Assembly: GCF_026151205.1 (NCBI RefSeq)
Contig: NC_087073.1
Location: 19,228,658-19,292,657, forward strand
Reading direction: 5' to 3'
DNA: 64,000 bases
Source: Bolinopsis microptera
Lineage: Eukaryota
Below, in pieces: positions 208 to 27,627 of this stretch. The position numbers and the translations under genes were made by a program. Under the pieces are notes generated by a model. The model was not told the DNA's origin and ran no database searches. It worked only from the letters and a program-made list of their open reading frames with translations. Positions within the stretch are counted from its first letter, which is position 1, and each line of letters starts with the position of its first letter.

Positions 208-397
208 TGTTAGTATTCTCACTGAGCTGCGAGGGCCACATCGCTGCAGTGTTTCTATTTCTATTATGGATTGTATTTGTATTTATATTCATTTATTTAT
301 TTATTAAGATGACTAACCATCTATCTCCATAGGAGTGGTGGGGCTGTTTTTACACTACAATTACTGCCTATCATTGCACCGTCTAACCAATAAAACA
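208..397 (+). repeat. 5' LTR of copia-type element (190 bp)
   Basis: Identical to 5732-5921. Starts TGTTAG and ends AAAACA. Confidence 0.9.
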
Positions 398-3300
398 TGG
401 TAAACAGTGAAGATGAAAAAGAAAGTAATCCACCACCTGATACAGCAACATCATCAAATGTTCAAGGAGCAGTACTGCAACCAGAGCCAATACAAGTGCA
501 GTACCAACAGCCAGCAGCCCGCCTTACAGCCCCACCGCAATGGAAAGCATCTATGAGTTATGAGGAATGGAGACTACAAGTTGAGATGTGGGACAAATTA
601 TGTGCAGTCAGAAAAGTAGACCCCGCAGAGCAAGGGTATGCCTTGTTCAACCTAGTATCTCAACACACTGATCATAATATCGTATCAAAGCTCAACTCAG
701 CAGTAAAAAACAAAGACATCGATGTTCTTGACGGGGAAGGAGTACAAAACATCATGAAGCTATTAGATAGAACATACAGGAAAGATGATACCAGTAAGAT
801 GATGAAATCCTGGTCGGATTTTATCAATCTTAGGAGAAAGGACAGTCAAGATATGTCAAGCTTTCTCAATAACTTTGATCAAGCCAACACCAACTTGAAA
901 ATTAGCAAGATATCTCTTCCTGGAACTGTGTTAGCATTACACATGCTAGAAAGATCCGGTTTATCAGCAAATGACAAAAAGCTGGTAATGACTGGAGTTG
1001 AGTTAGTTAAAACAGAGTCTGTTGTTGAAGATATGATGAATTCAATCAAGAAATACTTTGGTGAAGGAATCCGTGAGGTTGAAAAGAGACCACAATGTGA
1101 TACGCCCATCAAAGAAGAGCCAGTATTCAATGGTGAGAGACTTTTTTCTGAATCGTCAGAATCTACACGTTCATCATCAGATCCTGATAACATGTCTGAA
1201 GAAGAGGAAGCCTACTACACCAATTGGAGAAATAGAGGAAAGGCTTGGAGAAGAACAGATAATAACAGATCATACAACAATCACATCTCAAGATTTAATC
1301 GTGACAAAAGGGATAATGACAAAGGAGAATACAAGCCAAAGAGATATTCAGATAATGATCGAAGAAGAGATAACTCTAGAAGTTTCAAAAAAGAGTACTC
1401 TAAGACATATAAGACAGCTGATGACTCTAGGGCAACTCAGAAGTTTAACCCCCGGTTGAGATGTAATAGATGTGAATCAGTAATGCATTTGATTAAAGAT
1501 TGTCCTCATTCAGATAGATCAGAAAATGTTAATGAATGTAGAGAGATTTCAGAGATGGAGACAGCAGAATGCCATCAGGTAGCACTTTTAGACTCTGCTT
1601 GCTCGAAGAATGTAGTTGGCGAAGAATGGATTCGTGAGTACATAGATAACCTGACAGAAGAGGACAAAGCACTCCTGAAAGTGTCAGACGCCCGTTCAAA
1701 ATACAGTTTTGGAGGTAGTGACCCTATTGCTGCCGCAGATGCGGTGAGAGTACCTTGTATAATTGCCGGAAAGAAGACATTCCTTTGGGCTGATATAGTG
1801 CAAAGGAATATTCCATTTCTGATCTCCAAAGAAGAGATGGCAAAGCGAGGGTTTAAATTAGACCTTGGTACAAGTACGATTGAAGTAGATGGAGAGATGA
1901 TCCCTGTTATAACAACCGAGTCAGGTCTGATTGGCATATCTCTATGGGATTATAATGAAGTTGCTATAGAAGAGCAATGTAATCTAGTCAATCTAGATGA
2001 CACAGTCAGCAGTATTACCAAACTTCATAAGCAGCTGGGTCATTGTTCAGCAGAGAATCTGAAAAAGATTACCAAAAATGCAAACGTACAAGGTGAAAAT
2101 GTGAACAAGGTGATTGATCAAGTGCTAAAAGAATGTGATGCCTGTGCGAGATATAAAAGAACACCCTCCACACCAGTCGTTGGATTACCTATGGCAACGA
2201 AGTTCAATGAGGTAGTAGCTCTTGATTTGAAACAATTTACTGGAATCAATGGTTATGTGATTTACATTGTTGATATGTTCTCAAGATTCTGCAAAGCTAG
2301 GGTGATTTCCAACAAAAAGCCAGAGACAGTAATAAAAGCCTTTACTATGGAATGGATTGCAGCAGGTATGGGACCTCCAGGAAAAATATTAGTGGACAAT
2401 GGAGGAGAATTCGCAAACAATGAACTTAATGATCTCAGTGAACAACTCAACTTTGAAATTTGTGTTACCAGTGCCTACTCACCTTGGTCAAATGGCTTAT
2501 GTGAAAGAAACCATGCTGTGGTTGACAAATCAGTGCTTAAAATGATGTATGACGGGTTTCCATTGAAGATAGCACTTGCATGGTCAATCAATGCCAAGAA
2601 CACACTGTACAATGTCAGTGGATTTTCTCCAGTGCAGATAGTGACAGGTCAGAATCCAAACTTTCCTGGGGTATCTTACAACTTGCTACCTGCTAATGAA
2701 GGAGCAGATGAATCATTATCAAGCGACATTCAAAGGAATCTTAATGCAATGTATCTAAGCAGAAAAGCATATCTAGAGGCAGAGAATTCAGAAAGAGTTA
2801 AAAGAGCTTTGAAAAGACCCTTACGAGATATCAACCAAGACTTTATGATTGGTGATGTTGTATTCTACAAAAGACCTAATATTGAACGCTGGAAAGGACC
2901 TGCCAAGATAGTCGGCAAGGAAGGAAAGACTCTTATACTGAGGCATGGAGGACTGCTTATCAAAGCAGCAAGCTGTAGAATTGTGAAACGAGAATATATA
3001 GTGAGTGACGAGCACAACCAAAACAATGATGATATCTTGGAAACAGAGAATAGCATACATGATGAAGCAGTCAATCTTAACGATGATCAGTTTGATGAAG
3101 CTGCTGAAAACATAGAAGAAATGCCTATTCAATTTCAAGTGCCAGTGGAAACAGAGGAAATACCAACAGGACAAGAAATTATGAGCTCCTCTCCAATACT
3201 TGAAATAGACTCTAAGGTAATTTCCAATGAACAAAAACAACAACTCAAGATTAAGTATTTGGAAACTAGACTTCAGAAAAACGATGTTTCGGTCGGAGAT

Positions 3301-5013
3301 ACGGTGAAACTTGTTAAAGAAGGAAAAGAAAATGAATGGGAGACATGTACCGTGACTCAAAAAGGAAAACGGCTTGGCAGAAAAGATCACTGGGTGAAAC
3401 TTATGACAACCCAAGGTGAAGAAAAGCTGATAGATTGTACAAAGACGGCTATGTACAAAGCTGATGCTGCTATTGATGCAGAACCTGGAGACGATCACGA
3501 AGAATGTAATGTTGTGACAATTCCCACTTCCAGACACAATGAAGATGTGGTTATTAAGGCTAAAGTTATTGAATTGACTAACTGGAAGCAGAGAGAAGTA
3601 TATGATGAAGTCAAGGATTGTGATCAGAATGTCATTACAACAACTTGGGTAATAACAGAAAAACCCAGCACTGAACTTGGAGTTAAAGCCCGGTTAGTAG
3701 TCCGTGGATTTCAAGAGCAAAATCAGTCGATTGAAGTGGAGTCACCTACAGTATTCAAAAACACTCTCAAGGTTGTACTTGCTATAGCTGCAAACCAGCA
3801 GTGGCAACTAACAACGATTGATATCAAAGCTGCCTTTCTGCAAGGAAATAAAATTGAAAGAAATGTTTATGTCATACCACCCAAGGAAGCTCATGTAGAA
3901 AAAGGTTATTTGTGGAGATTGAGAAAGACAGTGTATGGTTTAAATGATGCGGCAAGAGCTTGGTTTATCAGTGTGAAGGGACTTCTTATCAACCTTGGTT
4001 GTACTCAATCAGTGTTAGATCCTGCTTTGTTCATATGGAGAACTAGTACTGGATTCGAAGGAACACTTGTGCTTCACGTTGATGATTTCTTAGTAGCTGG
4101 TACAAAGTCATTCTTTGATAGAGTTGTAAAAGAACTGACATCAAACTTTGAAGCTGGTAAAATCTGCAAATCAAAGTTCAATTACATTGGTCTATCAGTT
4201 GAGCAGACAGAAGACGGTATCCTAGTGAACCAACATGAATATATCCGAGATCTAGCAGATGTCATCAATGATAAAGAACATGAGATATATCATCTGTCGA
4301 CTGACAGGAAGCTTAGAACAATATGTGGTCAGTTGAACTGGGTAGCTGCTCAATCACGCCCAGATTTGTCATTCATGACGTATGATTTAAATGTAACAAA
4401 GAGTGTAGATCCAGTAGAAGCTGTTAAGAAGGCCAATAAAGCATTCAGACGGATGAAAGAGCTCAACGGTTGTTACAACACAAAGTTCTCAAAGTTAGGA
4501 GACATTTCTACACTAAAGATTGTGATCTACTCTGATGCATCATCTATGAACCTCGGTGACAAGGTGTCCACAGGAAAAGGTCATCTAATAGTCCTAATGA
4601 ATGAGGAAGGAAAGATATCACCGTTATCATGGGGAAGTCATAAATGTAAACGAGTTGTAAGCAGCACTTTGAGCGCAGAGACTTTGGCATTCAAAGATAC
4701 ATTAGATCATGGAGTGTATGTCTCTCATCTGATAAGTGAGATCTACTTCGATCAATTTGATAAGTCAATGGTTCCAGTAATAGGCTTTACAGACAATCAA
4801 TCATTAGATAAAGCTTTGCGATCAAGTAAACATGTTGAAGAAAAGAGGTTGAACGTTGATCTGGCTACCATTAGACAAATGCAGCAGAAAGATGAGATTG
4901 AAGTAAAATGGGAAGAGGGAGCTAAACAGCTTGCGGATCCCTTTACTAAAATAACCAGTAACAGTGATAAACTTTTAGTGATGCTAAATAAAGGAGAAAT
5001 TGTTTCAATTTAA
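397..5013 (+). CDS. Copia Gag-Pol polyprotein, uninterrupted 1538 aa
   Basis: Gag zinc knuckle CNRCESVMHLIKDC (CX2CX4HX4C). Protease LLDSACSKNVVG. Integrase HHCC (H..GHCSAENL ... CDACARYK) and DDE residues (IVDMFSRF / LVDNGGEF / CERNH). RT motif LHVDDFLVAG. RNase H region with IVIYSDASSM and TDNQS. Confidence 0.9.
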   Translation: MVNSEDEKESNPPPDTATSSNVQGAVLQPEPIQVQYQQPAARLTAPPQWKASMSYEEWRLQVEMWDKLCAVRKVDPAEQGYALFNLVSQHTDHNIVSKLNSAVKNKDIDVLDGEGVQNIMKLLDRTYRKDDTSKMMKSWSDFINLRRKDSQDMSSFLNNFDQANTNLKISKISLPGTVLALHMLERSGLSANDKKLVMTGVELVKTESVVEDMMNSIKKYFGEGIREVEKRPQCDTPIKEEPVFNGERLFSESSESTRSSSDPDNMSEEEEAYYTNWRNRGKAWRRTDNNRSYNNHISRFNRDKRDNDKGEYKPKRYSDNDRRRDNSRSFKKEYSKTYKTADDSRATQKFNPRLRCNRCESVMHLIKDCPHSDRSENVNECREISEMETAECHQVALLDSACSKNVVGEEWIREYIDNLTEEDKALLKVSDARSKYSFGGSDPIAAADAVRVPCIIAGKKTFLWADIVQRNIPFLISKEEMAKRGFKLDLGTSTIEVDGEMIPVITTESGLIGISLWDYNEVAIEEQCNLVNLDDTVSSITKLHKQLGHCSAENLKKITKNANVQGENVNKVIDQVLKECDACARYKRTPSTPVVGLPMATKFNEVVALDLKQFTGINGYVIYIVDMFSRFCKARVISNKKPETVIKAFTMEWIAAGMGPPGKILVDNGGEFANNELNDLSEQLNFEICVTSAYSPWSNGLCERNHAVVDKSVLKMMYDGFPLKIALAWSINAKNTLYNVSGFSPVQIVTGQNPNFPGVSYNLLPANEGADESLSSDIQRNLNAMYLSRKAYLEAENSERVKRALKRPLRDINQDFMIGDVVFYKRPNIERWKGPAKIVGKEGKTLILRHGGLLIKAASCRIVKREYIVSDEHNQNNDDILETENSIHDEAVNLNDDQFDEAAENIEEMPIQFQVPVETEEIPTGQEIMSSSPILEIDSKVISNEQKQQLKIKYLETRLQKNDVSVGDTVKLVKEGKENEWETCTVTQKGKRLGRKDHWVKLMTTQGEEKLIDCTKTAMYKADAAIDAEPGDDHEECNVVTIPTSRHNEDVVIKAKVIELTNWKQREVYDEVKDCDQNVITTTWVITEKPSTELGVKARLVVRGFQEQNQSIEVESPTVFKNTLKVVLAIAANQQWQLTTIDIKAAFLQGNKIERNVYVIPPKEAHVEKGYLWRLRKTVYGLNDAARAWFISVKGLLINLGCTQSVLDPALFIWRTSTGFEGTLVLHVDDFLVAGTKSFFDRVVKELTSNFEAGKICKSKFNYIGLSVEQTEDGILVNQHEYIRDLADVINDKEHEIYHLSTDRKLRTICGQLNWVAAQSRPDLSFMTYDLNVTKSVDPVEAVKKANKAFRRMKELNGCYNTKFSKLGDISTLKIVIYSDASSMNLGDKVSTGKGHLIVLMNEEGKISPLSWGSHKCKRVVSSTLSAETLAFKDTLDHGVYVSHLISEIYFDQFDKSMVPVIGFTDNQSLDKALRSSKHVEEKRLNVDLATIRQMQQKDEIEVKWEEGAKQLADPFTKITSNSDKLLVMLNKGEIVSI

Positions 5014-5921: not shown

Positions 5922-7130
5922 ATCCTCAATTTAATTCTTACAGTTATTCAGGTTCATGCCGGTTCATGAGGTTTGAATTGAGCCCTTTATTAACTATCAC
6001 AATAATTAACCAGTTTGATGTAAATTTGAGTCATAATGAACTAAACGTTTCTGAGTAACTTTTTACCTTTCATTGCACAAAGGAACTCCCCAGTATACTA
6101 ACAATTTGTATCATCTATTTGATGTGGAATAGGTTACATGTTGCTCTCTATAATGAAAGTGAAACTATCTATTTCAGTTTCTTTTTAGTTTCTGGATAAA
6201 TCACGCCCGTGTTAAAACAGAGAACACATCAATTTTAGTCGATCAAACTTAGTTCGCACTGCTCTCATTCATTTCGCAACTTTATCCTTTCGAACTTGGT
6301 GACGTTTATAGTCTTTATACTTTCCTGCTTAGATGAGCATGAACTATTAGTACTATACCCACTACCTAATAGTTAACCTAATCTGAAGTCTTTATGTATC
6401 CTTCAAACAAGTCCCCTGTTATCTTCTTAATTATATATCTACAGTACTTTAAACTATTATTCCGTTCTGTGAACGATCCCAAGGCATCTTATCCTCAATT
6501 TTCATTCAATAGCAACAATTTCTAAAATTTAGTCGGCAAAAAAATAGCAGGCAAATGGAGTCGACTTTTAGCAAGGTTGTAGAAAAATGATATGCTGCTA
6601 TAAATGTAATTTTAGGATTTGATAATGGCCTTACTTGGTTATAAGCTCATGAGGGTACTTTCCAACTCTTCGTCAGGGATTGTTCGCATATTATTACGCT
6701 ACGAGGTGACAAAGTCACTACTCCCTCAGTCAAGTGACTATTATAATGTAAAGAGGCTTTTAAGTTTTAAATCGTATTTTAACAAGATATTATACACAAA
6801 ACGAAATAATTACGTAAAGGCTGTAATTTTACTTTTATATGGAATATTAATGGATTTTTTTTATCTAGACACTTATTTTACTTCGGTGTATTCCAACAGC
6901 CACAATGTTACACAAGTGCAACCAGCCAATTACAGGAAGCCGAAGGATCTTTTTGGCCAGTGACGGTTAAGGTAGTGTGTACCATACTTTCTTCGTCCGA
7001 GACTTTGCTGCAATGTGCAGCTCCTCATTTAACCCTCACACCCGATTTCTCGAGTATTCGGCTGAGTAGACCGGGGGGCTGCATAGACCACTCATGATCC
7101 TTAGCTGAACGTCGACGACGCTCACCCCAC

Positions 7131-7213: not shown

Positions 7214-8372
7214 AAAAAAAGTAAATGGATAAAATTTTTACTATACACATCTAGAACGGTTCCTAAATTAACAGATCGGTCAATTATAAACACGACATAG
7301 TGTTCCTTGTTTTGAGTCTTTAGTTTTGGGAAATACAAAAAGTTTCACCAAAAACGACTTGAAAGTTGGCGAATTTAACATATTAATGGTTCAGCAAATT
7401 ATTATGTCTGATTTCTGGAACCGTTTGTTAAATGGCTCCATTTGAAGGTTATGGCCACAATTTTGTCAAAAATACAGGGTGGGGGGCCAAAGTAACGTTG
7501 CATACATTGGCCTTTATGGCTCAGTCACTGATCGTCCGATTGAGGTAATTCTTTTTGGTATGACTTACTTTCACCACTCATTCGAGGAATATGTTAAATC
7601 AAAGAATATTCATGTTAATTTTTTTCGAATGAAGGTTCATTATCGCATTTATTTGATAGTTCTGATAATCGGATCGAGCCAAATTTTATTGAATTGTGTT
7701 CGGCCATTCGAATCACGTTTGTCCTGAACAGATGAGAGTTGTAGCTTCTCAGATAACTGAGATAGAAGCATAACGAGTTTATTCATTATGTGTGATCAGG
7801 CTTACCTGATTGTGAAGGCAGCCCAGTTAAGGTGTCGTGTCACATAATCAACCAATCAATTTTGTTAAAGAGATACAAAAAATCAAAAATTCTTGATAAC
7901 ATCGTCATTTCATATCTATCTATTATATGGGCGCGGTCTGAAATACTCGAATTTTCGAATTTTGTTAACTAGTAAGGTTTTTTTCAAACCTTACCAGTTA
8001 CCACTTACCATGGCCAAAGATCACGAATAAATCTTAATGTTTTCAAACAGTTCAAACCCCATTCAAATTTACTCGATTTCAGGTTTAAAAAGTGGCAGAT
8101 TTTACACTTGGAGGAAGCTTAGCTTGGACAAAATTTAAAACCAGCAAAACTATGGTGCAATATAAATTGGGACAATCTAATATAGCCTATAAAAGTACTA
8201 AGTACTATTAGTTTCATGTTAGATAACAATCGTATAGTTTCTTTGCGTGTACCACTTTTATTTGTGAACATTCTTAAATACTGTGTCCAACTAGTATTCC
8301 GAATTTAAATGTTATTAACATTATACGATATATCCTGTAGTTCATTTTATCAGCACACCTAAAAGAGCTCAC

Positions 8373-8852
8373 TTGCGTATTGAGCCTAATGTTTGTTTAA
8401 TTTTTCTGTCGATATTACTAATCCTCGTTAATTTCTGTATAGCAATGATGATCACCTTCATTGTGACACTTTCCCTGGTTTGTGCTCTAGCCTCTAGTAA
8501 TGACGGACTGAAGGTCCGAGCTCTGTCATTTGGTCGAACAAATGCAGACTATGTACAATTCAAACCCAGTGGTGATATGTCTCCGTTCTCTACTTCCTTT
8601 ACCATATGCTCATGGATGAAGAGACTTCATGATGCGAGTCACCCAATAGTGTTGCACTACTGGCCATGGGAATTGGTCATCGGAGACAACGGATATTGGA
8701 ATTACGCTAACGGGTACCTAGATCTAAGCGGAAGGTTCCCAGAAGCTAAACAGTGGTTCCATCACTGTTTATCGTGGGTGGTTGGAGGTACACAGAGAGT
8801 GTACGTGAACGGTGTACAATTAGGCAGCACATCCGCTTCAGCCTTCAGCTAA
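8373..8852 (+). CDS. Pentraxin-like ORF, N-terminal part (signal peptide and first half of the pentraxin fold)
   Basis: ORF track plus alignment by eye to CRP/SAP: FTVCLHF versus FTICSWM; HICTSWESASGIVEFWVDGKP versus HHCLSWVVGGTQRVYVNGVQ. Confidence 0.7.
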   Translation: MRIEPNVCLIFLSILLILVNFCIAMMITFIVTLSLVCALASSNDGLKVRALSFGRTNADYVQFKPSGDMSPFSTSFTICSWMKRLHDASHPIVLHYWPWELVIGDNGYWNYANGYLDLSGRFPEAKQWFHHCLSWVVGGTQRVYVNGVQLGSTSASAFS

Positions 8853-9430: not shown

Positions 9431-10043
9431 AGCAAAAAGAAAACAAACTAATCAAAACCGAACAGGAACTACAAGAAATAACTAAAACTCTAAACGACAC
9501 TCTATCGGAACTAACAGAGATGAAAGAGAACAAGGCTGATTGTAGGGAATTAAAGATGAAGCTCCAGGAAACTGATGCCAAACTTAACAGCACCCAACAG
9601 GAACTACAAGAAAACACGAAAACTCAGAACGGAAACCTTTTGGAGGAGGCTAGAAGTCTTGAAACTGTCAGTAGATGGGACGTTTTGTTCACTCCCCCTT
9701 ACCTGAATAAGCTCTTTACACGGCAGCTCTACAATCAACTGACCAACTGCAGTTGGGATATGATGGGTAATTCTTAACTCTTTTCTTCTTGTCGGTTTTG
9801 TATCTTTCAGAGAATATTAGTTATACAGAATACTATATTTAAATAACAATGAATCAGATAAAGAATACCACTGATCTAACCAAACTTATAACATTTCAGA
9901 AGAGTTCATTGGGGTGAACGTTACAGTGGGACTGGTGGAGCATTTCAGACAAAACCACGCGGAACACGAAACTTGCGACGAGGAATGAACTGAACATCAG
10001 CTACTGTAGTCAACTACTTGTTATTGGGTCCTGTTATCATTTA

Positions 10044-10160
10044 TAATCATCTGTAATCGTCTGCAATCATCTGTAAATCATCTGTAAATCATCTGTAATC
10101 ATCTGTAATCATCTGCAATCATCTGCAAATCATCTGCAAATCATCTTTAATCATATGCAA
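10044..10160. repeat. Minisatellite (ATCTGTAATC / ATCTGCAATC)n, about 12 copies
   Basis: Direct reading. The same array resumes at 11380-11530. Confidence 0.85.
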
Positions 10161-10165
10161 TCAAC

Positions 10166-11363
10166 TGCTTTAGAGCTCGGCTAATAGCCGGCTAGTGACC
10201 GCTTAGTAGCCGGTTAGTAGCCACTTTGTGGTCACTAGCCGGCTAGTAGCCGGTTAGTAGCCGGCTAGTGACCACTTTTCAAGTGCCGGTTAGTAGCCGG
10301 TTGGTAATGTGAAGTTGAGGAGCTGTTATTACAAAAGTGGCTACTAGCCGGCTTGTAGCCGGCTAGTAGCCGGTGTTCATATGGTACTGTGCAGGGACGT
10401 TGCATAGACGTTGCATAGACGTTGCATAGACGTTGCATAGACTGACCGTGCAGGGAGTGTGCATAGAGTGTTCATTGTGCAGGGACGTTGCATAGACGTT
10501 GCATAGACGGTTCTTTTGTTGTTGCACGGACGTTGCATAGACGTTGCATAGACTGTCCGGAGCTAAACGACCAACTTCCCTGATTGGCAACTTAGTCGTT
10601 TAGCTCCGGACAGTCTATGCAACGTCTATGCAACGTCCATGCAACAACAAAAGAACCGTCTATGCAACGTCTCTAAAGCAGACCTATTAGTAGCCGGTTC
10701 TAAACCGGCTACTAGCCGGCACTTGAAAAGCGGTCACTCGTCGGCTACTAACCGGCTACTAACCGGCTAGTAACCGCCAAGTGGCTACTAACCGGCTACT
10801 AACCGGTCACTAGCCGGCTATTAGCCGAGCTCTAAAGCAGACCTACTAGTAGCCGGTTCCAAACCGGCTACTAGCCGGCACTTAGAAAGCGGTCACTAGC
10901 CGGCTACTAACCGGCTACTAACCGGCTAGTAACCACCAAGTGGCTACTAGTAGGTCTGCTTTAGAGCTCGGCTAATAGCCGGCTAGTGACCGCTTAGTAG
11001 CCGGTTAGTAGCCACTTTGTGGTCACTAGCCGGCTAGTAGCCGGTTAGTAGCCGGCTAGTGACCACTTTTCAAGTGCCGGTTAGTAGCCGGTTGGTAATG
11101 TGAAGTTGAGGAGCTGTTATTACAAAAGTGGCTACTAGCCGGCTAGTAGCCGGCTAGTAGCCGGTGTTCATATGGTACTGTGCAGGGACGTTGCATAGAC
11201 GTTGCATAGACGTTGCATAGACGTTGCATAGACTGACCGTGCAGGGAGTGTGCATAGAGTGTTCATTGTGCAGGGACGTTGCATAGACGTTGCATAGACG
11301 GTTCTTTTGTTGTTGCATGGACGTTGCATAGACGTTGCATAGACTGTCCGGAGCTAAACGACC
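10166..11363. mobile_element. Foldback-like composite element inserted in the minisatellite: a right-arm-only copy (10166-10572), a 21-bp spacer, then a full foldback copy (10594-11363)
   Basis: Arms are built from tandem GCTAGTAGCCGG / GTTAGTAGCCGG 12-mers and ACGTTGCATAG 10-11-mers. Termini GGTCGTTTAGCTCCGGACAGTCTATGCAACG ... CGTTGCATAGACTGTCCGGAGCTAAACGACC are inverted repeats of each other. The same element is at 24567-25474. Confidence 0.6.
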
Positions 11364-11379
11364 AAGTTGCCAATCAACT

Positions 11380-11530
11380 TTAAATCATCTTTAATCATAT
11401 GCAATCATCTTTAAATCATCTTTAATCATCTGCGATCATATATAATCATCTATCATCATATTTTATCATCTGTATTCTGTAATCATCTGTAATCATCTGT
11501 AATCATCTGTAATCATCTGTTATCATCTTA
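11380..11530. repeat. Minisatellite (ATCATCTGTA)n, continuation of the 10044-10160 array on the far side of the insertion
   Basis: Direct reading. Confidence 0.85.
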
Positions 11531-11560
11531 TAATCAACAATTTAAATTAGCTGTGACATT

Positions 11561-11700
11561 AACAGTGACAATAGTTTATAGTTTATTATATTATAATAAA
11601 CTATAAACTATAAACTATAAACTATAAACTATAAACTATAAACTATAAACTATAAACAATAAACTATAAACTATAAACTATAAACTATAAACTATAAACT
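11561..11700. repeat. (AAACTAT)n microsatellite, about 15 copies, preceded by its own inverted complement TAGTTTATAGTTTAT, which can form a hairpin
   Basis: Direct reading. Confidence 0.85.
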
Positions 11701-15416: not shown

Positions 15417-15602
15417 ATGAGAGATGTCAGCTTAGAGCTTGTGGTGCCCAAAACATTCTTTCAGTCTTTTAAAGGAATTAAAGGGGAATTGATCCTGGAA
15501 ATCACCACCAAAACTGTGTTTAAAATATTTACAATTTATAATAGATAGAATTGTTCAAACATGAAAAATAGTTCGAAATATGAACTTAAACGAGTTACCA
15601 AC

Positions 15603-15749
15603 CAGTAGCAATAGCAAGAGAGTCGGGACTGTAAGACACACAATTCATATTGTAACTGTGACCCTGCTGTTTAAGAACGTATGTCTCACTCTTCCACTCC
15701 CATACCAGGAGTTGACCGTGCCCCCGACACCCAAACCCTAGCAGATCTC
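15603..15749 (-). CDS. PWP2: PWP2 internal exon
   Basis: GDLLGFGCRGHGQLLVWEWKSETYVLKQQGHSYNMNCVSYSPDSLAIATG versus human GDWIAFGCSGLGQLLVWEWQSESYVLKQQGHFNSMVALAYSPDGQYIVTG. Acceptor cttcag, donor ACTG|GTTGGT. Exons between here and 20480 were not mapped. Confidence 0.75.
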
Positions 15750-15770
15750 CTGAAGATGTTTATTGTTAAC

Positions 15771-16135
15771 TAACACTGTTACTAACTAACACTGTTACTA
15801 ACTAACACTGTTACTAACTAACACTGTTACTATTTACTTACTAACACTGTTACTAACTAACACTGTTACTAACTAACACTGTTACTAACTAACACTGTTA
15901 CTAACTAACACTGTTACTAACTAACACTGTTACTATTTACTTACTAACACTGTTACTAACTAACACTGTTACTAACTAACACTGTTACTAACTAACAATG
16001 TTACTAACTAACACTGTTACTAACTAACACTGTTAGTACTAACTAACAATGTTTGTACTAACTAACACTGTTAGTAGTTACTAACACTGTTACTAACTAA
16101 CACTGTTACTAACTAACATTGTTAGTACTCGTGTT
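15771..16135. repeat. 18-bp minisatellite (CTAACTAACACTGTTACT)n, about 20 copies, inside a PWP2 intron
   Basis: Direct reading. Confidence 0.9.
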
Positions 16136-16640
16136 ATTCTAGTCATTTCTTTGTTGAGAATATTGATTATTGATTGTAAGTTGTGGTGGTTGTCAAAAAT
16201 TTCATGAGACGAAATGTATCGAATTCCACATGGAAAATTACCTTTTAAATTGCTTACTTTACTTAAAACTGCAGATCTTATGTAGTACAGTGACTACCAT
16301 TGCAAATATGTAATAAGTGTAGTAAACGAGCAATTGGAACCAACTGTTCCACTAAGTTTAACCACAGGAATGTAATTTGATACATTATGTTCCCCTGGTG
16401 CAGTGTCAATCATTGACATTACTTATAATTTACAGAACTGTGTTTTACAATACTTATCATTACAGACCGTTATATTTATAGTAAAAACATTCGTCTGGAA
16501 TCTGGATCATTGTGTCTATTATATACTTATTATATACTTAGTACATCTCACAGACTGTAGACTGTACAATGAGCTATTTGTACTAGATAAACACACACAG
16601 TCACATGGAATGTAGTATGTTGCCCGGTTAGTTGACAAAA

Positions 16641-16807: not shown

Positions 16808-17891
16808 TACATCATCACAGTAGTACAGAACAGATCCCTGGAGGTGATACACAGTGCTCATTACACAGAACCATGTCAATGTAATCTGGTAGCACTGCAA
16901 CTAACAGCTGTATCATCCTACTCATTAGTTGATTGGGCAGCAGAGGAACGTGCTAACTGTAGCTGTCACGTGACTGACGTAACAACCATTATTACAGCGA
17001 GACTTAAGGACTGTGATATCTAGAGAGACTGACTGTAAAAGCGTAGTGTGATTAATTTTGCCCTGATTATATCGGAGGCGATCTGGGCACGATTTTCATA
17101 CTACAAACTTGTCAAAGTCAATGAAACTGAAGCCACAGTGTGACAGAACATTTGGGTATTAATGTCTTTGTGTAAGGACTGAGAATAACACATGTATCTA
17201 TTAGCAATACTAGCAGGAACCCGTCTACCCTAAAGTGGTGTCAAGACTCGAGAGACTAAAATAATTATTACCTAATTAATTCGCGTTTTTGACACCACTT
17301 GGGAGTCAAAATTTTGGGCACTAAAATTCTTATTCCTTGGCCAATTTTTAATTTTTTCATGCTTATTTGAAGGCCATTAAAGCATTTGACCCAGTCAAAA
17401 AAATTTCAGTTGTATATCTTTTACGGTTTTTGCGGAAAGTCGCGTTAAAGTTGATGCCGTGGTGTCAGTAAAATGGCACGGATCCATATACATATTATAT
17501 ATATATTTCATGGCTGGACTTCTACACAATAAAAGAAAGCGGTTGTGATTAGATCTTCGAAAGTCTTTGCATCGTTTATTTACATCAATTCTGAGAAATT
17601 ATATCATTAAAGTAACTACAACAGATACGAATCATATACAATTGAGAATAAATACAAACTAAAAGCAGTGGGAAAATCTGATGAACTGAAATTTAAAAAA
17701 GAAACTGAAAGCCGTTAAAAATGTACTCTTATCTTATCTCTTATCTAAATACTGATAACTGATTCTCGGAAAATCACTTAAAATCACAACAAAAACCTGT
17801 AAAATTTATACTTAAGTAAAAAATGTAATATGCACGTCTCTGGAATAATGGTATAACTAAATAAAATCTACAAAATATACTAAAACTAAAA

Positions 17892-18731
17892 CTAAGCTCC
17901 GGCAGATTTAAAAAGTAGATGGTTACTATCAAGGGTGTTCATACCCCCAAACCGTTCAAGGGTTTTCAATTGGGTCTGGTAGAACCCCTCTCTAGCTTCC
18001 ATAGCCTTTTCTTTGTCTGCTTTACTAATATTAGGCTCAAATACTAAAGCGTCTACTATAATGACAGAAAGGTGCTTACTGAGTGAGGAATTATAGGAGG
18101 CTATGGTACTAAAATCTAAATCATGATCAATATCTAAAAAATGGTTAACTAATTTACAACTTCTTATACCTTTCTTTATGTGACTCTTATGGTTAGAGAA
18201 TCTCTTAGGGAGATTTGAGGTAGTATAACCGACATACGACTGTTTACAAGTCTTACACTCCATTAAATAAATGAGGTTATAACTCTGACAAGATATATAC
18301 TTAGTTATAGGGAAAACTTGTTTAGAATGGTGACTACTAAAATTGGAACAGGGGGACAGGAAATTTTGCTTACAAACATAACATTTACCACAAGCATGGC
18401 ACCCTGGGTCGACAGCCCCGGGAACCGCCCTTAGACTTTCGGAGTCCGGTTCCTGGATCTGGCTTGCAGTTGTTTCTCTCTCATTATCACAGTTTAAAGT
18501 TCCACTGGCACGGTACTTATTGTGTACAAGCATGCCACCGATAGTTTGATTCTTTCGATGACTCACGAATACACTGTCCACACGTACCAGCTTCTTCAGG
18601 GCCGGTTCAAGGTTGAGAAGGTGCTTATACTTATGGATAATGCCCCCCATGTTGGGAAGTGCTGGATTTTGATCCATCACCATGGGTATTAAACAGGCAG
18701 TCGACTCATCCTTGTCTTTAAGGGTATACAA
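17892..18731 (-). CDS. Free-standing ORF (279 aa) with a Cys-rich zinc motif and a complete GIY-YIG nuclease domain of Penelope-like-element (PLE) type. No RT is present, so this is probably a 5'-truncated PLE or an EN-only derivative.
   Basis: CHACGKCYVC (CX2-5CXXC-like) lies upstream of LIYLMEC..SYVGYTT....R...H (GIY...YVG), followed by the conserved Arg, His, Glu (EAREGFYQ) and Asn (GGMN). About 35% identical to the ORF at 35823-36452. Confidence 0.65.
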   Translation of the reverse strand: MYTLKDKDESTACLIPMVMDQNPALPNMGGIIHKYKHLLNLEPALKKLVRVDSVFVSHRKNQTIGGMLVHNKYRASGTLNCDNERETTASQIQEPDSESLRAVPGAVDPGCHACGKCYVCKQNFLSPCSNFSSHHSKQVFPITKYISCQSYNLIYLMECKTCKQSYVGYTTSNLPKRFSNHKSHIKKGIRSCKLVNHFLDIDHDLDFSTIASYNSSLSKHLSVIIVDALVFEPNISKADKEKAMEAREGFYQTQLKTLERFGGMNTLDSNHLLFKSAGA

Positions 18732-18825
18732 GTTTTTCCTATTAGCTATATCACTAAATTTGTTAAAGGCATCTTCTATAATACTGGAATGATAACCTCG
18801 GGCTATATATATTATATATTTTATT

Positions 18826-19239
18826 ACTAAATATATAACTTGTCAGAGTAATAACCTTATTTATTTAATGGAGTGTAGAACTTGTAAACAGTCGTATGTA
18901 GGATATACTACTTCTAATCTCCCTAAGAGATTTTCTAATCATAAGAGCCACATTAAGAAAGGTATCAGAAGTTGTAAGTTAGTAAATCACTTTTTAGATA
19001 TTGATCATGATTTAGATTTTAGTTCAATAGCCTTATATAACTCTTCACTTAGTACGCACCTTTCTGTTATTATAGTGGACGCTCTTGAATTTAAACCTGA
19101 AATAAGTCAAGCAGATAGGGAAAAGGCCATGGAAGCTAGAGAGGGGTTCTACCAGACCCAATTGAAAACCCTTGAGCGTTATGGGGGTATGAACACCCTC
19201 GATAGTAACCACATCCTTTTTAAATCCGCTGGAGCTTAA
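18826..19239 (+). mobile_element. Inverted, 5'-truncated duplicate of the GIY-YIG domain (about 90% amino-acid identity to the C-terminal 125 aa of the 17892-18731 ORF), head-to-head with the longer copy
   Basis: KYITCQSNNLIYLMECRTCKQSYVGYTTSNLPKRFSNHKSHIKKG... is encoded on the plus strand. Homology breaks at about 18810-18826. Confidence 0.7.
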
Positions 19240-19904
19240 TGTTTAGTTTATTTATTTTATTTGACATGATCTCAGCCTATTAACCAGTGTTTAGTTTACA
19301 ATATTGCTATCAGAGACGTGTTATATTCATTACTATTTATATATTTTTACTGCTTGATTCAGAGAAATCTAGCTTTTTCCGAGAAACTAATCTTTAATAG
19401 ATTAGATAAAATGTACGCAGCCATTCTTTTCGTTTGATTATTACTCAGTATATTTTAGTTTTGTACCGTTTTAAGTCACATAGTTTTGTACGTCTTCCTA
19501 AGACTTGTTTTCCTTTCCTAGTTTGTAAGTTATTTTAAAGATTTGTGAATATTCCAGTTGCTTTTAGAACAATTTTATCTCAGATAACGATGTTTAATAA
19601 AATGATGCAAAGACTTATTTCGAAGATCTAATCAACACCGACTTTTAATGTGTAGGAGTACAGCTACAAAATATATATATATATATCGTCTCGCTATATT
19701 ATATAGTAAGATAAAAGGAATATAGGCTGTAGTGTATGTACAATGAAAACCTACACTAAAATTACTAACCCGAAGGACTAATGGAAACTGTAGAGATATC
19801 TTTCTGGGAGATTGAGAGGGTGTGTATCTGGTCAAATGTGGGGAGGTCATACAACGTGAACTGACCACTGAAATTATTTACATGTTATTCGTTTTCTTTA
19901 TAGA

Positions 19905-20581: not shown

Positions 20582-20896
20582 CTGAAAAGATCATTTTTAA
20601 ATGACAATTGGTGTTAGAAACGATTAGTTCGAAAACCTGCCTCCTAATGACTGTTATTTATCTATCTTTGCTCAGAAATAACCCACGCTAAATGAGCGAG
20701 TGGTTGGTTGGATCTATAGATTGGTACGTGTTTTAAGAAAATTGCAGATAGTGTAGAGAATAGAGATTAGAGATGTATGAGAAAAGCACACCTCAAATGT
20801 TGTAAAATAACATCTGAGAAGATTTACACCTCTCATCTCTTGTCTATTTGCAGGAACTTCTTCATGGTTATCATTATCATTAAAACATCAACCTAC

Positions 20897-21126
20897 CCAG
20901 TAAGAGCACTGCGTTCCCACAGAAACATACCACCGTCAGCACTGACTGAGATAACCTCTTGCGCACCACCAGGTCCAAACCAGGCGCCCACCACGCTGCG
21001 CTTGTGTCCCGTCAGGGTAACGGGTACAAAGTTCTCTTCTGGTTCACGAGAGAGCACTTTAACTGTCATGTCCACACTTCCACATACTAGGTAACGGGAA
21101 CACGCGCTCCAACTTATCGTAGACAC
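20897..21126 (-). CDS. PWP2: PWP2 exon 4
   Basis: VSTISWSACSRYLVCGSVDMTVKVLSREPEENFVPVTLTGHKRSVVGAWFGPGGAQEVISVSADGGMFLWERSALTG versus human TTCIDWTDDSRCFVVGSKDMSTWVF...GGHKDAIVACFF...SLSQDGVLCMWQ. Acceptor tgtcag, donor TGG|GTAGGT. Confidence 0.75.
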
Positions 21127-21278
21127 CTGACAGGTAACAGGATGTTCATTGTTTATTAGCAAACAGCCAAACAAGATAATCAGAAGAGTTGTTCAATGTT
21201 CATGATATATAGATATAGGGAAGATTTGGTTCACAAATTGCACAATGAAGCTGAAATACACTGAATATCTCCCCGCAC

Positions 21279-21455
21279 CTCATCGTATTGTCCAGGGTAA
21301 GTGCGCACTAGAGTGAAAGGAGTGAACTCTTTACTGGTGCCAGGCGCGCACCACAGCTGCACGTGCTTGCCGTGTGACACTGCAATGTGGGCTCCGTCCG
21401 GGGAATAGCTGATGGCACTGACGGGCTTTTTGAAGTTGTGGTGTGCCAGTAATAC
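21279..21455 (-). CDS. PWP2: PWP2 exon 3
   Basis: VLLAHHNFKKPVSAISYSPDGAHIAVSHGKHVQLWCAPGTSKEFTPFTLVRTYPGQYDE versus human VLHHFHFKGSVHSVSFSPDGRKFVVTKGNIAQMYHAPGKKREFNAFVLDKTYFGPYDE. Donor GAG|GTGCGG. Confidence 0.8.
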
Positions 21456-21677
21456 CTAGAGGGGAGTATAATTTGTTTGGAATGTTGCAACCCCCGGCAA
21501 TTAAGATGTGAGATGCAGCAAATGATAAAAATAGATTTCATTATAACACTGCACGGTTGCGCAGCAAAGCAGAGTTGAGAGTATTGCAGTTGCGAGAATA
21601 TTCCTTTGTGTTGAGTGGAGAGAGATGACCAAGAAAGGATTTAAGCATATAATATTCAATATTGTGAAACAACTCAC

Positions 21678-21803
21678 CCTTTTTCTGAGGTTTATAAGGA
21701 TAGCTCGGCCCTCCACATCGACACAAACCAACATGTTACCGCAGGGTGACAGGGCGAAACATTCCATGTTTTTACGTGTTTCAAATGGTAATGTCACCGT
21801 CTT
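21678..21803 (-). CDS. PWP2: PWP2 exon 2
   Basis: SKTVTLPFETRKNMECFALSPCGNMLVCVDVEGRAILINLRKR versus human TLPLATRYNVKCVGLSPDGRLAIIVDEGGDALLVSLVCRS. Acceptor tttcag, donor AGG|GTGAGT. Phase is consistent with exon 1. Confidence 0.8.
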
Positions 21804-21935
21804 GCTGAAATCAAAGAAATTTGAAAATCTTTTAATGATCTCAATAAACCAATAGATTGCGGTTTGGTTTTCCACAAAATAATATCTGATGGCTGCTAAC
21901 TGTTTTAACCTATTATATAAGATACTGAACGAATA

Positions 21936-22045
21936 TTAAGAATTTAAAGAATTTAAAAAATTTAAAGAATTTAAAGAATTTAAAGAATTTAAAGAATTTA
22001 AAGAATTTAAAGAATTTTAAGAATTTAAAGAATTAAGTCAGAGTC
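21936..22045. repeat. 9-bp minisatellite (AAGAATTTA)~12, beginning about 6 bp inside PWP2 intron 1
   Basis: Direct reading. Exon 1 ends at 22051. Confidence 0.9.
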
Positions 22046-22050
22046 CAGAC

Positions 22051-22184
22051 CTGCCCTTCATATCGAAGATAGTGATCCTACTGCCGACTGGACTGAGCAG
22101 CTTGTTACTGTCTGGACTGAAAATGAGGTTTCCTCCCTTGTACACCGTACCGCACAAGTTACTGAACTCATAGCTGAACTTCAT
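22051..22184 (-). CDS. PWP2: PWP2 (periodic tryptophan protein 2, WD40 / UTP-B small-subunit processome) first coding exon with the start codon
   Basis: MKFSYEFSNLCGTVYKGGNLIFSPDSNKLLSPVGSRITIFDMKG aligns with the human PWP2 N-terminus MKFAYRFSNLLGTVYRRGNLNFTCDGNSVISPVGNRVTVFDLK. ATG at 22184-22182. Donor CAG|GTCTGG. Confidence 0.8.
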
Positions 22185-23311
22185 CTGATCTCTGTTCAAA
22201 TTGTGTACAGTCAAGTAATTACCAATTAGCACATAATTACCATGAGTAACACAATTACTATAATTATAAGGAACATTATTTGTACTAGTAACATTCATAA
22301 TTATTGGCTACATTACATTTCATTGTAATTTGCGAGTCTGTCTATAATTGCACATTTGATAAAGTTGCAGAAGGATAGATCATTCGCCCAATAATTTAAA
22401 TTTAATCTAATTTTTACGCTTTTATTTTCTAAACTGCAAATTTTATCAACCACACGACCTCATAACTTCATAATATTATAATCCCATTTTCTCATCAATC
22501 TAGAAATTATCATGAATGATCAGTACATCATCCAATTGGACTGATTACGTAAATGTATGAGTAACAGTACACAAATACAATACTGCGCCCGTTAATTACC
22601 ACTGCTCTGATATTGCACCACCTTCAGAATACATTGCTCAATATACACGCTGCTTTGTGTCTTTGCGGGTGAAATGTTATGAAAGGGAGGAGATACGCGG
22701 AGCGTGACGTAATAGCACCACAAGAGATATATAATGTGGGTAATTTGCTTTACTGGCTATTTGACTGTCAAGATAAACTGGATTGTCTGGAGTGGCTCAC
22801 TGTTATACTGGGAACCAGGTGGTTTAAGAAGCTCAGCTTTCCAACTTTACGCAGTGAAACTACAGGAATCTGCTTGAGTGCGAATATGGTTGGCATTGTA
22901 TATTATAATTTACGAATGTATAAATTGATAAAACGTTAAAAGTAGGTTTCATATAATATATTACCCCTATATTAGCAAAATCATGTAAAAAGCATAAAAC
23001 ATGATACAATTTTAAAACATTAGCAGTACGAAATTGTATCCAAAACAGCAAATGTGTCCGGTTAAATAGGTCATATTCACATCTTGACCTTGATAATGTT
23101 AATGTTTAAGTGGTTTAAAATTGTATACGTGCGTCGTCAGTCGTGCATACAGCATAATCGATAACATTATTATGCTTCTCAAAATTTGGGAATCTGATGT
23201 TAGATGTTAAACGCGATTTACCATTATGTAAATCTGTCCACATTTGTATAACCATATTTCGACTGGTACTACAAAGAGAGTGGTAACCAAGTTAAAATCT
23301 GAACACCAGGG

Positions 23312-23920
23312 TTAATACCGACTATCTGACTGTTTAGCTACTGATTCCTGCCTCTCCACTTCACCTTCCTCAATTCTCGAGGTTACCTCCGCTGAATGGT
23401 CCTCCAATATGCTGTTTACTAACCCCCTGTGTTTCTCCATGATAGTCCGGCACCCCTCATGTACCTTACCTCCCTTAAACTTCTGTCTCCGCCTCTTGCT
23501 GTCTCTCTGTAACTTTATCAACTCCAGTTTAGATTTAGCCTGGGCTTCTTGCTTTTGTTTCAGTTTTTCTTCCGGGTCAAATTCTTGAAGATCTGATAAA
23601 TTGAGCTGGTTTGGGAGGTCGCTGCTGTTTTCAACGAGGAAAGTGTAAAGTTCCAACTTTGCTGCAGGTGGGAGGAGACTGAACGCTTCAGTGAAATCAC
23701 CAGAGGGAACACTGTTTTCTTCGTACAACGATAAAATTTTTGTCTCAACTTTATGATCAAGAGAGGGCGGGGGTCGCTTCTTCGATCGTTTATGAGATGG
23801 CGAGTAATTCAAAAACTTTTCTAAATCATATCCAATATCTGTGACGAATGTTTCAATTGTTCGTTGGAGTTCTTCTATTTTTTCGTAGAGTTTAACTTCA
23901 TTAATACTTAGTTCACTCAT
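23312..23920 (-). CDS. Uncharacterised intronless ORF (202 aa), acidic with basic NLS-like patches (HKRSKKRPPP, RDSKRRRQKFKGGK). Product unknown.
   Basis: ORF track only. ATG in a reasonable Kozak context (gtcATGa). It begins about 25 bp from the LINE 3' end. Confidence 0.3.
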   Translation of the reverse strand: MSELSINEVKLYEKIEELQRTIETFVTDIGYDLEKFLNYSPSHKRSKKRPPPSLDHKVETKILSLYEENSVPSGDFTEAFSLLPPAAKLELYTFLVENSSDLPNQLNLSDLQEFDPEEKLKQKQEAQAKSKLELIKLQRDSKRRRQKFKGGKVHEGCRTIMEKHRGLVNSILEDHSAEVTSRIEEGEVERQESVAKQSDSRY

Positions 23921-26260: not shown

Positions 26261-27627
26261 AGACAAAGAGGGCGCAGACTTTTTAAAGGTCCACGTGGCT
26301 TACCAGTTTAATAACGTATTAAAAAATCGCCATATAAGACTTAAATAAATTTCAAACAGCAGGTATATTTACTTAATTCAGGCCTCTCATTTTGGTAATG
26401 TGACTTTTTCAAACTATGTAACCACACCTCACTTCGATTGGTAGATCTTAATAGCTAAGACAATAACTTTATTCAGCACTTCATTAGTTTCATATAATTC
26501 GGTTTAATTTAATCGAATTTGATTTAATCAGATATGTATGACCTTTTCCAAATTCTGTTAGTACTTCCCATTCGTTGACTTGCGCATATTTCAGCCAATA
26601 AAAAGCTTAAAGCTTTAAAGAGTGAAGAAATGACCGCATATTATACGTCGCGTATAATACATATTGACCCACTTACTGAGAACCTATAAGCGGAGTACAG
26701 ACTACAGAAGTGTTGAACAGGAAATTGCGATGTACGGGAACAATGAGATTCACATGAACTTTACAATTGTCATGGTGGCTGATCCATTCTTTACACCCTT
26801 ACCTACATCATCTTACATCTATCTATACTTAACAATCCTCTCAACACTCAACTACAATTATAAGCTTTGTGTGCTTTAAGAATGTCACGTGATTCCATAT
26901 GAAGAGCAGGTATGTGATGAGGTTTCCATCGAGGGAAGTGAGCCTCATGAACAGGGGTTGATGAGTGGTCTGGAGCGGAATACTGTGATATCTAATGATT
27001 ATTTGCATATTTTGTAAATAGTAACAATGCAATGTTGAGAGAAGATGTAAGAAGAATGTTGTTTGTTTGTTACGAGCAATGTGAATAAGAAGAGTGGCGG
27101 CCGTGTGTCTATATTTCATGATTATGATGATTGATGAGGTAGAAAATAGTCGTTTGAAAAAAGACTTTAAAAATATATGAAAGAGACATGTTTTATCCGT
27201 ACAGATTTTACGTACGCTACTTAAATGTTCATTTGTATAAATATCTGATAATTTACAGTCATAAATAAACTGAACTTGCGAGCCATTATCCACATTTACT
27301 ATGGTTATGTTTTGAGCGGAGTTTAAATCATATCCTCACTTTGCAAATGCAATATAAGATGGTAGTTACCGGAACATAAATGTGGAGATCATTTAAACTG
27401 TTGACAAATGAACAGCATATTATAAAATATACATAATATCGAGATAGTTAGTACATCATGTTAACAGTGATTTTGATCCCAACTGTTTCTAGTTCACTCC
27501 TAGAATTTATAATTATAAGATTGCTTATTTCTTCTAAGCAGAACACACCAAGTTTTCAGCAGCTATCGCCTCATTACAAGGAGTTCTTATGACTTTATGA
27601 TAACAAAAGTTCACAACAAAATGTCGA

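Follow-up and report, generated by a model that had tools for sequence, protein, structure and literature searches.

The window analysed here is a stretch of 64,000 nucleotides (64 kb) of contig NC_087073.1 of the lobate ctenophore Bolinopsis microptera (NCBI RefSeq assembly GCF_026151205.1, positions 19,228,658 to 19,292,657, forward strand). It contains two related repeat-rich loci, locus 1 (10167-11371) and locus 2 (24559-25482), which are very probably copies of one non-autonomous family of class II (cut-and-paste) DNA transposons with foldback architecture. The family is new, its kind being already well known, and it is well delimited and was probably active in the recent past. It has the properties of a class II transposon with terminal inverted repeats (TIRs), namely sharp and reproducible TIR ends, a target site duplication (TSD) of fixed length together with an empty site, and no coding capacity. 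The properties of a foldback element are also present, as the long TIRs consist of tandem subrepeats and the middle region of 178 base pairs (bp) at locus 2 is itself repeat. An inserted, non-coding transposon of foldback architecture had been proposed in an initial annotation, and this proposal is borne out by the TSDs, the empty site and the inverted arms.

In the typical copy one end bears the 8-bp tip GGGAAGTT and the opposite end the 8-bp tip GGCAA[G/C]TT, each adjoined by an invariant subterminal stretch of 19 bp, GGTCGTTTAGCTCCGGACA. Each arm carries two blocks of 11-bp tandem repeats, and there is almost no unique centre. The known loci of the family are the two within the window and about six outside, and a self-BLAST comparison confines the family in the window to locus 1 and locus 2.

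The complete copy at locus 2 and its empty site

The element at locus 2, which reads GGGAAGTT-GGTCG...CGACC-AAGTTGCC, is inserted in a long interspersed nuclear element (LINE), of which a paralogous copy is available in locus L001 (ENA sample ERZ25073835). The features of locus 2 are the following:

24551-24558, no strand: left TSD GGTTTGGA, identical to 25483-25490, present once in the L001 empty site as TCCAAAAC (LINE strand)
24559-25482, plus strand: complete element, 924 bp, tips GGGAAGTT (left) and AAGTTGCC (right), delimited by the limits of the inverted repeat, the homology of 13 ends and the restoration of the reverse transcriptase (RT) open reading frame (ORF)
24559-24931, plus strand: left arm, 8-bp tip followed by the 19-bp unique subterminal stretch
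24586-24732, plus strand: degenerate GTCTATGCAAC 11-mers of the left arm
24755-24789, plus strand: CCGGCTACTAG 11-mers of the left arm
from 24826, plus strand: left-arm array running on into the middle
24932-25109, plus strand: middle, 178 bp, with a second copy (24985-25101) of the ~159-bp module spanning 24826-24942
25110-25482, minus strand: right arm, 98% complementary to the left arm
25483-25490: right TSD GGTTTGGA
23953-26309, minus strand: 5'-truncated LINE (non-LTR, long terminal repeat, retrotransposon), the recipient of the insertion; RVT_1 6.6e-16, 96-97% nucleotide identity to L001 10643-12066

The junctions on the plus strand read ...cttgtaGGTTTGGA/GGGAAGTTGGTCG... on the left and ...CGACCAAGTTGCC/GGTTTGGAaagcaag... 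on the right. When 24559-25490 (the element and one copy of the repeat) is deleted, two minus-strand ORFs fuse into one continuous frame of 468 residues, which reads ...RRCILANLAFQTYKKVWEQGKRIPLKTRL... and contains an RVT_1 domain (6.6e-16). The restored frame confirms the earlier statement that locus 2 interrupts the RT ORF of a LINE. The limits had initially been set at 24567-25474 (908 bp), with AAGTT as the flanking repeat, and deletion of these 908 bp and one AAGTT gives a longest ORF of only 289 residues. The true ends lie 8 bp further out on each side, AAGTT belongs to the imperfect tips GGGAAGTT and AAGTTGCC, and the TSD is the 8-bp sequence GGTTTGGA.

A protein search with the restored protein finds the intact paralog P0001, which is 98% identical over 99% of the query. 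The DNA encoding P0001, that of L001, aligns with the window LINE in two blocks of 96-97% identity, which overlap by 6 bases in L001 at the TSD. The empty site of L001 reads CTTGCTT-TCCAAAAC-TACAAAAAAG, with the target present once and the bases of the tips absent, and its counterpart in the window reads CTTGCTT-TCCAAACC-[element]-TCCAAACC-TACAAG. The comparison with an empty site that had been recommended thus defines a TSD of 8 bp. The two lengths considered initially, 5 bp (AAGTT) and 9 bp (CAATCAACT), are ruled out by the empty site, by the restoration of the ORF and by the alignment of the 13 ends; all readable insertions give 8 bp.

P0001 and a second protein, P0036 of B. microptera (LOC134821349), are uninterrupted at the site (AFQTYKKVW / AFQNYKKVW, ...LAFQTYKKVW...). 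P0036 has 99% identity to the query over the aligned 53% of the query, and the other named matches are from Mnemiopsis leidyi. The LINE therefore does not already contain the sequence, since paralogs without the element are seen both as DNA (L001) and as protein (P0001 and P0036). Look-ups meant to reveal an allelic or orthologous empty site gave no result, as for P0036 and for two proteins encoded near locus 2 (the 202-residue ORF 23312-23920 and the Mss4-domain ORF 29745-30290) no exact copies are on record. The insertion at locus 2 is probably recent, judging by its arms, which are 98% identical.

Shared terminus, arm architecture and folding

The 31-base terminus GGTCGTTTAGCTCCGGACAGTCTATGCAACG has five occurrences in the window and none in 100 dinucleotide-preserving shuffles, so that the termini are indeed common to both loci, as had been noticed initially:

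10542-10572, minus strand: terminus GGTCGTTTAGCTCCGGACAGTCTATGCAACG
10594-10624, plus strand: terminus GGTCGTTTAGCTCCGGACAGTCTATGCAACG with 1 mismatch
11333-11363, minus strand: terminus GGTCGTTTAGCTCCGGACAGTCTATGCAACG
24567-24597, plus strand: terminus GGTCGTTTAGCTCCGGACAGTCTATGCAACG
25444-25474, minus strand: terminus GGTCGTTTAGCTCCGGACAGTCTATGCAACG

In an inverted-repeat search the arms of locus 2, 24559-24931 and 25110-25482, are found to be 98% complementary over 373 nucleotides, with 178 nucleotides between them. As single-stranded DNA, the 924 nucleotides of locus 2 are predicted to fold into one long hairpin of -544 kcal/mol, compared with a mean of -137 kcal/mol for shuffled sequences (z-score -64). 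The arms are built of tandem units, GTCTATGCAAC near the ends and CCGGCTACTAG / AACCGGCTACT further inward, as detected by Tandem Repeats Finder. Tandem subrepeats in inverted orientation had been described before; their period, given then as 10-12 bp, is 11 bp. The middle of locus 2 is not unique either, as self-BLAST identifies 24985-25101 as the second copy of the ~159-bp module at 24826-24942. The end pattern of the family is GG[G/C]AA[G/C]TTGGTCGTTTAGC, and the terminal 60 bp starts with GG[G/C]AA[G/C]TTGGTCGTTTAGCTCCGGACAGTCTATGCAACG.

Apart from its central base, the 11-mer GGCTAGTAGCC equals its own reverse complement, and the same holds for CAAGTTG in the tip. Because these motifs are nearly self-complementary, the arms hold nested local palindromes; an example is a 48-mer with 92% self-complementarity at 10228-10275 and 11019-11066 of the window.

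Copies outside the window and the family-wide duplication

For the comparison of ends, 13 ends were stacked and read inward from the flank: those of the window and eight further ends from six loci, L002-L007. Three of these loci (L002-L004) are marine metagenome contigs found in a scan with a 26-mer from the terminus. The other three (L005-L007) belong to ENA sample ERZ25073835 and were found by searching proteins with the frame that stays open across the terminal repeats; the three matches are spurious 'proteins', all of them from other copies of the element.

In all 13 ends the similarity begins at the identical GG, and the flanks are unrelated. The tip, GG[G/C]AA[G/C]TT (of the types GGGAAG, GGCAAG and GGCAAC), is followed by GGTCGTTTAGC in 12 of the 13 ends, the exception being the short arm P4 of locus 1, which has AGTCG.... 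Further in, the invariant stretch reads ...TCCGGACA at every end but the truncated right end of L005. The terminal 190 bp has 88-98% identity among copies and 98% between the two arms of locus 2. It had been pointed out that failure of the inverted arms to recur elsewhere would speak against a mobile element; they do recur, in the independent copies of L002-L007.

Perfect TSDs are present on both sides of the copies in L005 (10011-10326, 316 bp, GTTACAAC) and L007 (9970-10228, 259 bp, GAATCAGC). The flank of the L002 end, which has a GGG tip (CAGCTATT), and the flank of the L003 end, which has a GGC tip (AATAGCTG), are exact reverse complements, and the simplest reading is that two metagenomes each caught one side of a single insertion. 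The TSD is therefore 8 bp in all five cases, namely locus 2, locus 1, L005, L007 and, by inference, L002/L003, and extension to 9 bp breaks the match at all three fully read pairs (locus 2, L005 and L007). The complete copies (locus 2, L005, L007 and the L002/L003 pair) each combine a GGGAAGTT tip with a GGCAA[G/C]TT tip.

The copies are 259, 316, about 490 and 924 bp long, and they vary by internal deletions. Comparison of the copies shows that the palindromic and repetitive arms make them unstable, with internal deletions and duplications of modules. L006 (9970-10347) and L007 (9970-10228) share the same flank and insertion point; the interior of L006 is much longer, and its contig ends within the element, as does the contig of L002. 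This difference reflects either allelic size variation or collapse of the palindrome in the assembly. The right end of L005 retains only 19 bp of terminal sequence and its TSD is still perfect; either one end can do with very little sequence, or the missing part was deleted after insertion.

In L004 (1-2203) the copy of the element ends at 691, and the first 300 bp consists of more diverged repeats. From ~850 bp onward this contig has an AT-rich ORF resembling a bacterial M3-family peptidase, as judged by reading the sequence, and the contig may be chimeric. A 20-mer match in a Lachnospiraceae metagenome-assembled genome, found among genome contigs, was discarded: it has no further similarity, and about one chance match is expected in 596 Gb. 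A DNA pattern scan of viral contigs gave no matches.

It could be argued that the two loci are not transposons, but a palindromic satellite or higher-order repeat that arose locally, or a piece of the LINE, as the sequence is nearly all tandem and inverted repeats and one locus lies within a minisatellite. This explanation is hardly credible when set against the sharp, identical ends amid unrelated flanks, the perfect 8-bp duplications at four sites, the paralogous empty site and the ORF that is restored on excision. There is likewise no match to Rfam families or tRNA genes in the window that would suggest an RNA gene.

The composite structure of locus 1

Read from its sequence, locus 1 (10167-11371) is a rearranged composite of the following parts:

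10159-10166, no strand: left 8-bp repeat AATCAACT, in which 'ACT' departs from the minisatellite unit; common to 11372-11379
10167-10580, minus strand: P2, complete arm whose tip, AACTTCCC at 10573-10580, is of the left type; the left arm of locus 2, once reverse-complemented, matches it with 96.6% identity
10581-10585, no strand: linker TGATT, reverse-complementary to AATCA, the 5 bp with which the right flank begins
10586-10672, plus strand: P4, 87-bp short arm with a right-type tip, GGCAACTT-AGTCG..., an inverted copy of 11285-11371
10673-10957, plus strand: P5, internal ~159-bp modules bounded by CTCTAAAGCAGACC
10958-11371, minus strand: P6, full right arm with right-type markers, ending ...CGACC-AAGTTGCC
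11372-11379: right 8-bp repeat AATCAACT
10031-11536, no strand: 10-bp minisatellite (AATCATCTGT-type units), split by locus 1 (Tandem Repeats Finder rows 10031-10167 and 11372-11536)

The location inside a minisatellite agrees with the initial description, as the 10-bp array continues on both sides; a further microsatellite, (ATAAACT)15, lies just downstream of it at 11596-11700. The repeat AATCAACT is considered a true TSD around the whole composite because both of its copies share the 'ACT' that departs from the minisatellite unit (AATCATCT...). The flanking repeat had been given as CAATCAACT; it is the 8-mer AATCAACT, and the C on the right-hand side is the last base of the element.

P2 runs from the inner boundary (GCTTTAGAGCTC...) outward to ...CGACC-AACTTCCC and is oriented like the right arm P6, and its inner end adjoins the left TSD. 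It has left-type markers, which are the tip AACTTCCC and a C at alignment column 375, and P4 and P6 have right-type markers. TGATT and P4 together form an inverted repeat (10581-10672 / 11285-11376, 92 nucleotides, 99% complementary) with the last 87 bp of P6 and AATCA. The '21-bp spacer' of the initial annotation is thus the tip AACTTCCC, TGATT and the tip GGCAACTT. Its division of the locus into a right-arm-only copy, a spacer and a full copy also needs revision, since the arm on the left has the GGG tip and the 'full copy' has GGC tips on both sides and lacks its own TSD. The breakpoints at 10165-10167 and 10671-10673 have a 2-bp CT microhomology and both lie in the motif CTCTAAAGC(AGACC), which also bounds the ~159-bp modules and resembles the subterminal motif (GGTCTGCTTTAGAGCTCGG compared with GGTCGTTTAGCTCCGG).

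From this arrangement it appears that one insertion made the AATCAACT duplication and that the locus was rearranged later. The rearrangement might have occurred by aberrant transposition with precisely cut tips or by template switching within the palindrome; alternatively, two copies lying tip to tip might have moved as a composite and then lost sequence on one side, starting at the left tip. Foldback elements are known to form composite or adjacent insertions, and at locus 1 a gap of 5 bp separates two intact tips that point towards each other; this could suggest that a solo arm and a full copy were inserted independently. We consider two independent insertions unlikely, as the inner 'copy' (10586-11371) is flanked by CCCTGATT and AATCAACT and so has no TSD of its own, and has GGC at both ends, compared with GGG and GGC in all four complete copies. 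Moreover, the right end of the inner 'copy', taken with 5 bp of flank, recurs in inverted form at 99% as the short arm and TGATT, and the sole 8-bp direct repeat brackets the whole composite. A fourth GACGTTGCATA unit common to P2 and P6 was rejected as proof of one element, as L005-L007 also have four units.

The tip-to-tip junction with 5 bp of the locus's own flank is the one unusual feature of the finding. On the minus strand the centre of locus 1 reads tipR-AATCA-tipL, in which the 5 bp is an inverted copy of its own right flank. Such a sequence could be the junction of a circle or of a head-to-tail dimer, formed when one end attacks just outside the other, although this is quite improbable. 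If true, it would mean that the family and its transposase sometimes use a one-ended or copy-out-like pathway, which to our knowledge has not been described for eukaryotic foldback elements.

Coding capacity and proposed mechanism

The only open frames of the element are short, with at most 54 residues inside it, and extend across the GTCTATGCAAC repeats; the CCGGCTACTAG blocks are rich in stop codons. The ORFs of the element have no Pfam match, and a Pfam scan of the window ORFs of 85 residues or more found no DNA-transposase domain, the matches being to copia-like pol, RVT_1, GIY-YIG, WD40, Mss4, LDLa/7tm and MRP-L27. The statement that no transposase is encoded therefore holds for the element as well as for the whole window. 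Manual inspection (no Pfam scan) of the ORFs of 170 residues or more in L001 and L005-L007 revealed only retroelement and host features and no transposase. The search for a trans-acting transposase that had been advised was thus run in the window and the related loci and found none. These results support a non-autonomous element, which by the usual reasoning would be mobilised in trans.

Insertion duplicates 8 bp of the target. Presumably the 8-bp tip and the adjoining invariant 19 bp are recognised by a DDE transposase from a gene elsewhere, which probably loads cooperatively on the 11-bp arrays; these recur about once per helical turn and would serve as repeated binding sites of low affinity, as has been shown in Muta1. 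The transposase would then cut at the tips and integrate the element with an 8-bp stagger, and the conserved GGG/GGC difference may tell the two ends apart. As a more remote possibility, the CpG-containing 11-mer arrays could also bind host architectural zinc-finger proteins of the kind reported at chromatin-loop anchors of ctenophores (PMC12221973).

Genomic context

An uninterrupted ORF of 1538 residues at 397-5013 (plus strand), with rve and RVT_2 domains, looks like the intact pol of a copia-like LTR retrotransposon, as far as its domains tell. Three ORFs of the window, including 17892-18842 (minus strand), match the GIY-YIG catalytic domain and are probably Penelope-like retroelements, and a second RT ORF is located at 43005-45245 (minus strand). 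Host genes around the insertions include WD40-repeat exons (20896-22307, minus strand) and the Mss4-domain ORF (29745-30290, minus strand); a receptor-like ORF at 56103-58271 (plus strand) has LDLa and a weak 7tm_1 match, below the Pfam cut-off.

In L001, long tandem-repeat blocks at 7290-8482, 15422-16199 and 17514-19313 are open in several frames, and over two of these blocks genes were called by a metagenome pipeline (15553-16041 and 17583-19316). Two loci from contig ctg11368 of ENA ERZ25073829 (L012 and L013) have Merlin (DDE_Tnp_IS1595) ORFs and the same neighbouring ORFs every ~3476 bp, and by this repetition they form a tandem array of a DNA transposon. The Merlin copy of L014 (ENA ERZ25073835) is ~3.46 kb long with candidate TIRs GGCCGCTATTAAAGTGCCC, a length that matches the tandem period of L012/L013.

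Candidate superfamilies

A Mutator-like origin, of the Muta1/Tm1 type of foldback element, is a tentative first guess that falls short of an even chance, made because the closest architectural matches are Muta1 and Tm1; the probability not assigned here and below lies with other or unknown superfamilies. TSDs of Mutator-like elements (MULEs) are 8-10 bp, usually 9 bp, and the invariant 8-bp TSD is within this range, at its low end.

Several points weigh against the interpretation as presented. Only about eight loci have been seen in total, and the TSD of L002/L003 is joined across two different metagenome contigs. A TSD of exactly 8 bp in five of five cases is less typical of Mutator-like elements than of Merlin or hAT. 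The role of the 11-bp arrays as binding sites is argued by analogy only. The autonomous partner was not found in the window and the related loci, so that the type of transposase and mobilisation in trans are deduced. The candidate TIRs of the Merlin copy in L014, GGCCGCTATTAAAG..., are unrelated to the element, which also counts against a Merlin origin.

Merlin comes second to the Mutator-like guess. Merlin elements have a conserved terminal 5'-GG, TSDs of 8 or 9 bp and TIRs of 24-462 bp, and they are present in ctenophores (PMC8101967; PMC10045372). A non-autonomous Merlin (IS1016-like) derivative would agree with both testable sequence features, the GG tips and the 8-bp TSD, and Merlin transposase genes occur in the same sample as related copies (L014). 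A profile built from the Beroe and Pleurobrachia proteins of the PMC8101967 supplement yielded six Merlin loci, L009-L014, none of which has BLAST similarity to the element, not even L014, which comes from the sample of L005-L007. Its candidate TIR GGCCGCTATTAAAGTGCCC (3508-3531 / 6945-6968) is unrelated, and the motifs of the element are absent from the ctenophore Merlin contigs in the PMC8101967 supplement. Except for a passing mention of tandem repeats in one Symbiodinium family, no report of long tandem-subrepeat arms in Merlin was found, and a tblastn search with the Beroe Merlin proteins against the DNA collected for comparison gave no match. The six-locus comparison, as a comparison of sequences, weakens a Merlin assignment, which we regard as unlikely.

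The 8-bp TSD is a hallmark of hAT and of the P element, and its length would fit a miniature inverted-repeat transposable element (MITE) of either superfamily, including a Galileo-like foldback of the P superfamily. The hAT terminal consensus is YARNG (CAG/TAG-type), and P/Galileo elements have CA-type ends and TSDs of 7-8 bp; the tips of the present family start with GG and match neither. Long composite arms are moreover atypical for hAT. Although foldback elements are documented in the P superfamily (PMC5499845), we consider a hAT or P origin improbable, more so than a Merlin origin.

Significance

The exact ends, the asymmetry of the tips, the 8-bp TSD and the map of the modules provide a curated family definition for the annotation of ctenophore genomes; automated pipelines that lack such a definition are apt to break elements of this kind up into satellites and 'unknown' repeats. 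The 98% identity of the locus 2 arms and the apparent size variants of L006 and L007 at one site suggest activity of the family in the recent past, so that a working transposase may be present to this day. Long perfect palindromes are hotspots of rearrangement and of assembly breaks, and locus 1 exemplifies the scrambling that they cause. The family is a non-bilaterian example of the design of a tip with a subterminal repeat array studied in Muta1; otherwise the finding is an ordinary one, of modest interest. A full-text search of the literature retrieved no paper that joins ctenophores with foldback elements.

Comparison with known foldback systems

The earlier label of the element as Foldback (FB)-type is correct for the architecture only and does not extend to membership of the Drosophila FB family or of a superfamily. 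With Drosophila FB the element shares the long inverted arms of tandem subrepeats, the small or missing centre, the heterogeneous lengths and the proneness to rearrangement. Drosophila FB elements have 9-bp TSDs and repeats of 10, 20 and 31 bp. In contrast, the TSD is 8 bp in all five cases here, and there is no sequence relationship, so the resemblance is architectural only.

The likeness to Merlin consists of the terminal GG, the 8-bp TSD and the occurrence in ctenophores (PMC8101967, PMC10045372). The Merlin loci examined have, however, unrelated ends. We know of no description of foldback architecture as a feature of Merlin.

Tm1, a Mutator/Foldback family of the Phantom subclass in Meloidogyne, has end-specific terminal motifs, arrays of 14-bp repeats and mostly MITE-like copies (PMC3169594). 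The composite TIRs of variable length made of tandem repeats (~14 bp in Tm1, 11 bp here), the unlike tips at the two ends of each complete copy and the predominance of MITE-like copies are common to both families. In one Tm1 copy the two ends share a terminal motif and a TSD is missing, which the authors of that study ascribe to inter-element recombination (PMC3169594), and the occasional copy of this kind is also a point of likeness. The tips of Tm1 are 7 bp long and mutually unrelated, whereas the 8-bp tips here differ at only 1-2 positions; the TSDs of Tm1 are mostly 9 bp, its hosts belong to another phylum, and no autonomous copy is known for the present family.

Muta1, a Mutator-like element of Aedes aegypti, has TSDs of 8 or 9 bp, the terminal motif GGGTCTACCC and nine subterminal repeats of 12 bp, which strengthen transposase binding and excision, and it is classed by its authors as a type 2 foldback element (PMC5225508, PMC5499845). 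It shares with the present family a short terminal motif starting with GGG, followed by a subterminal tandem array of ~12-bp units that makes a long TIR, as well as 8-bp TSDs and non-autonomous derivatives with arms of unequal length. The differences are that its TSDs are 8 or 9 bp, compared with 8 bp in all five cases here, and that its TIRs are 145 bp long, compared with about 370-415 bp, two repeat types and a higher-order module of ~159 bp. There is no sequence similarity between the two, and no MULE transposase was found with the ends of the present element.

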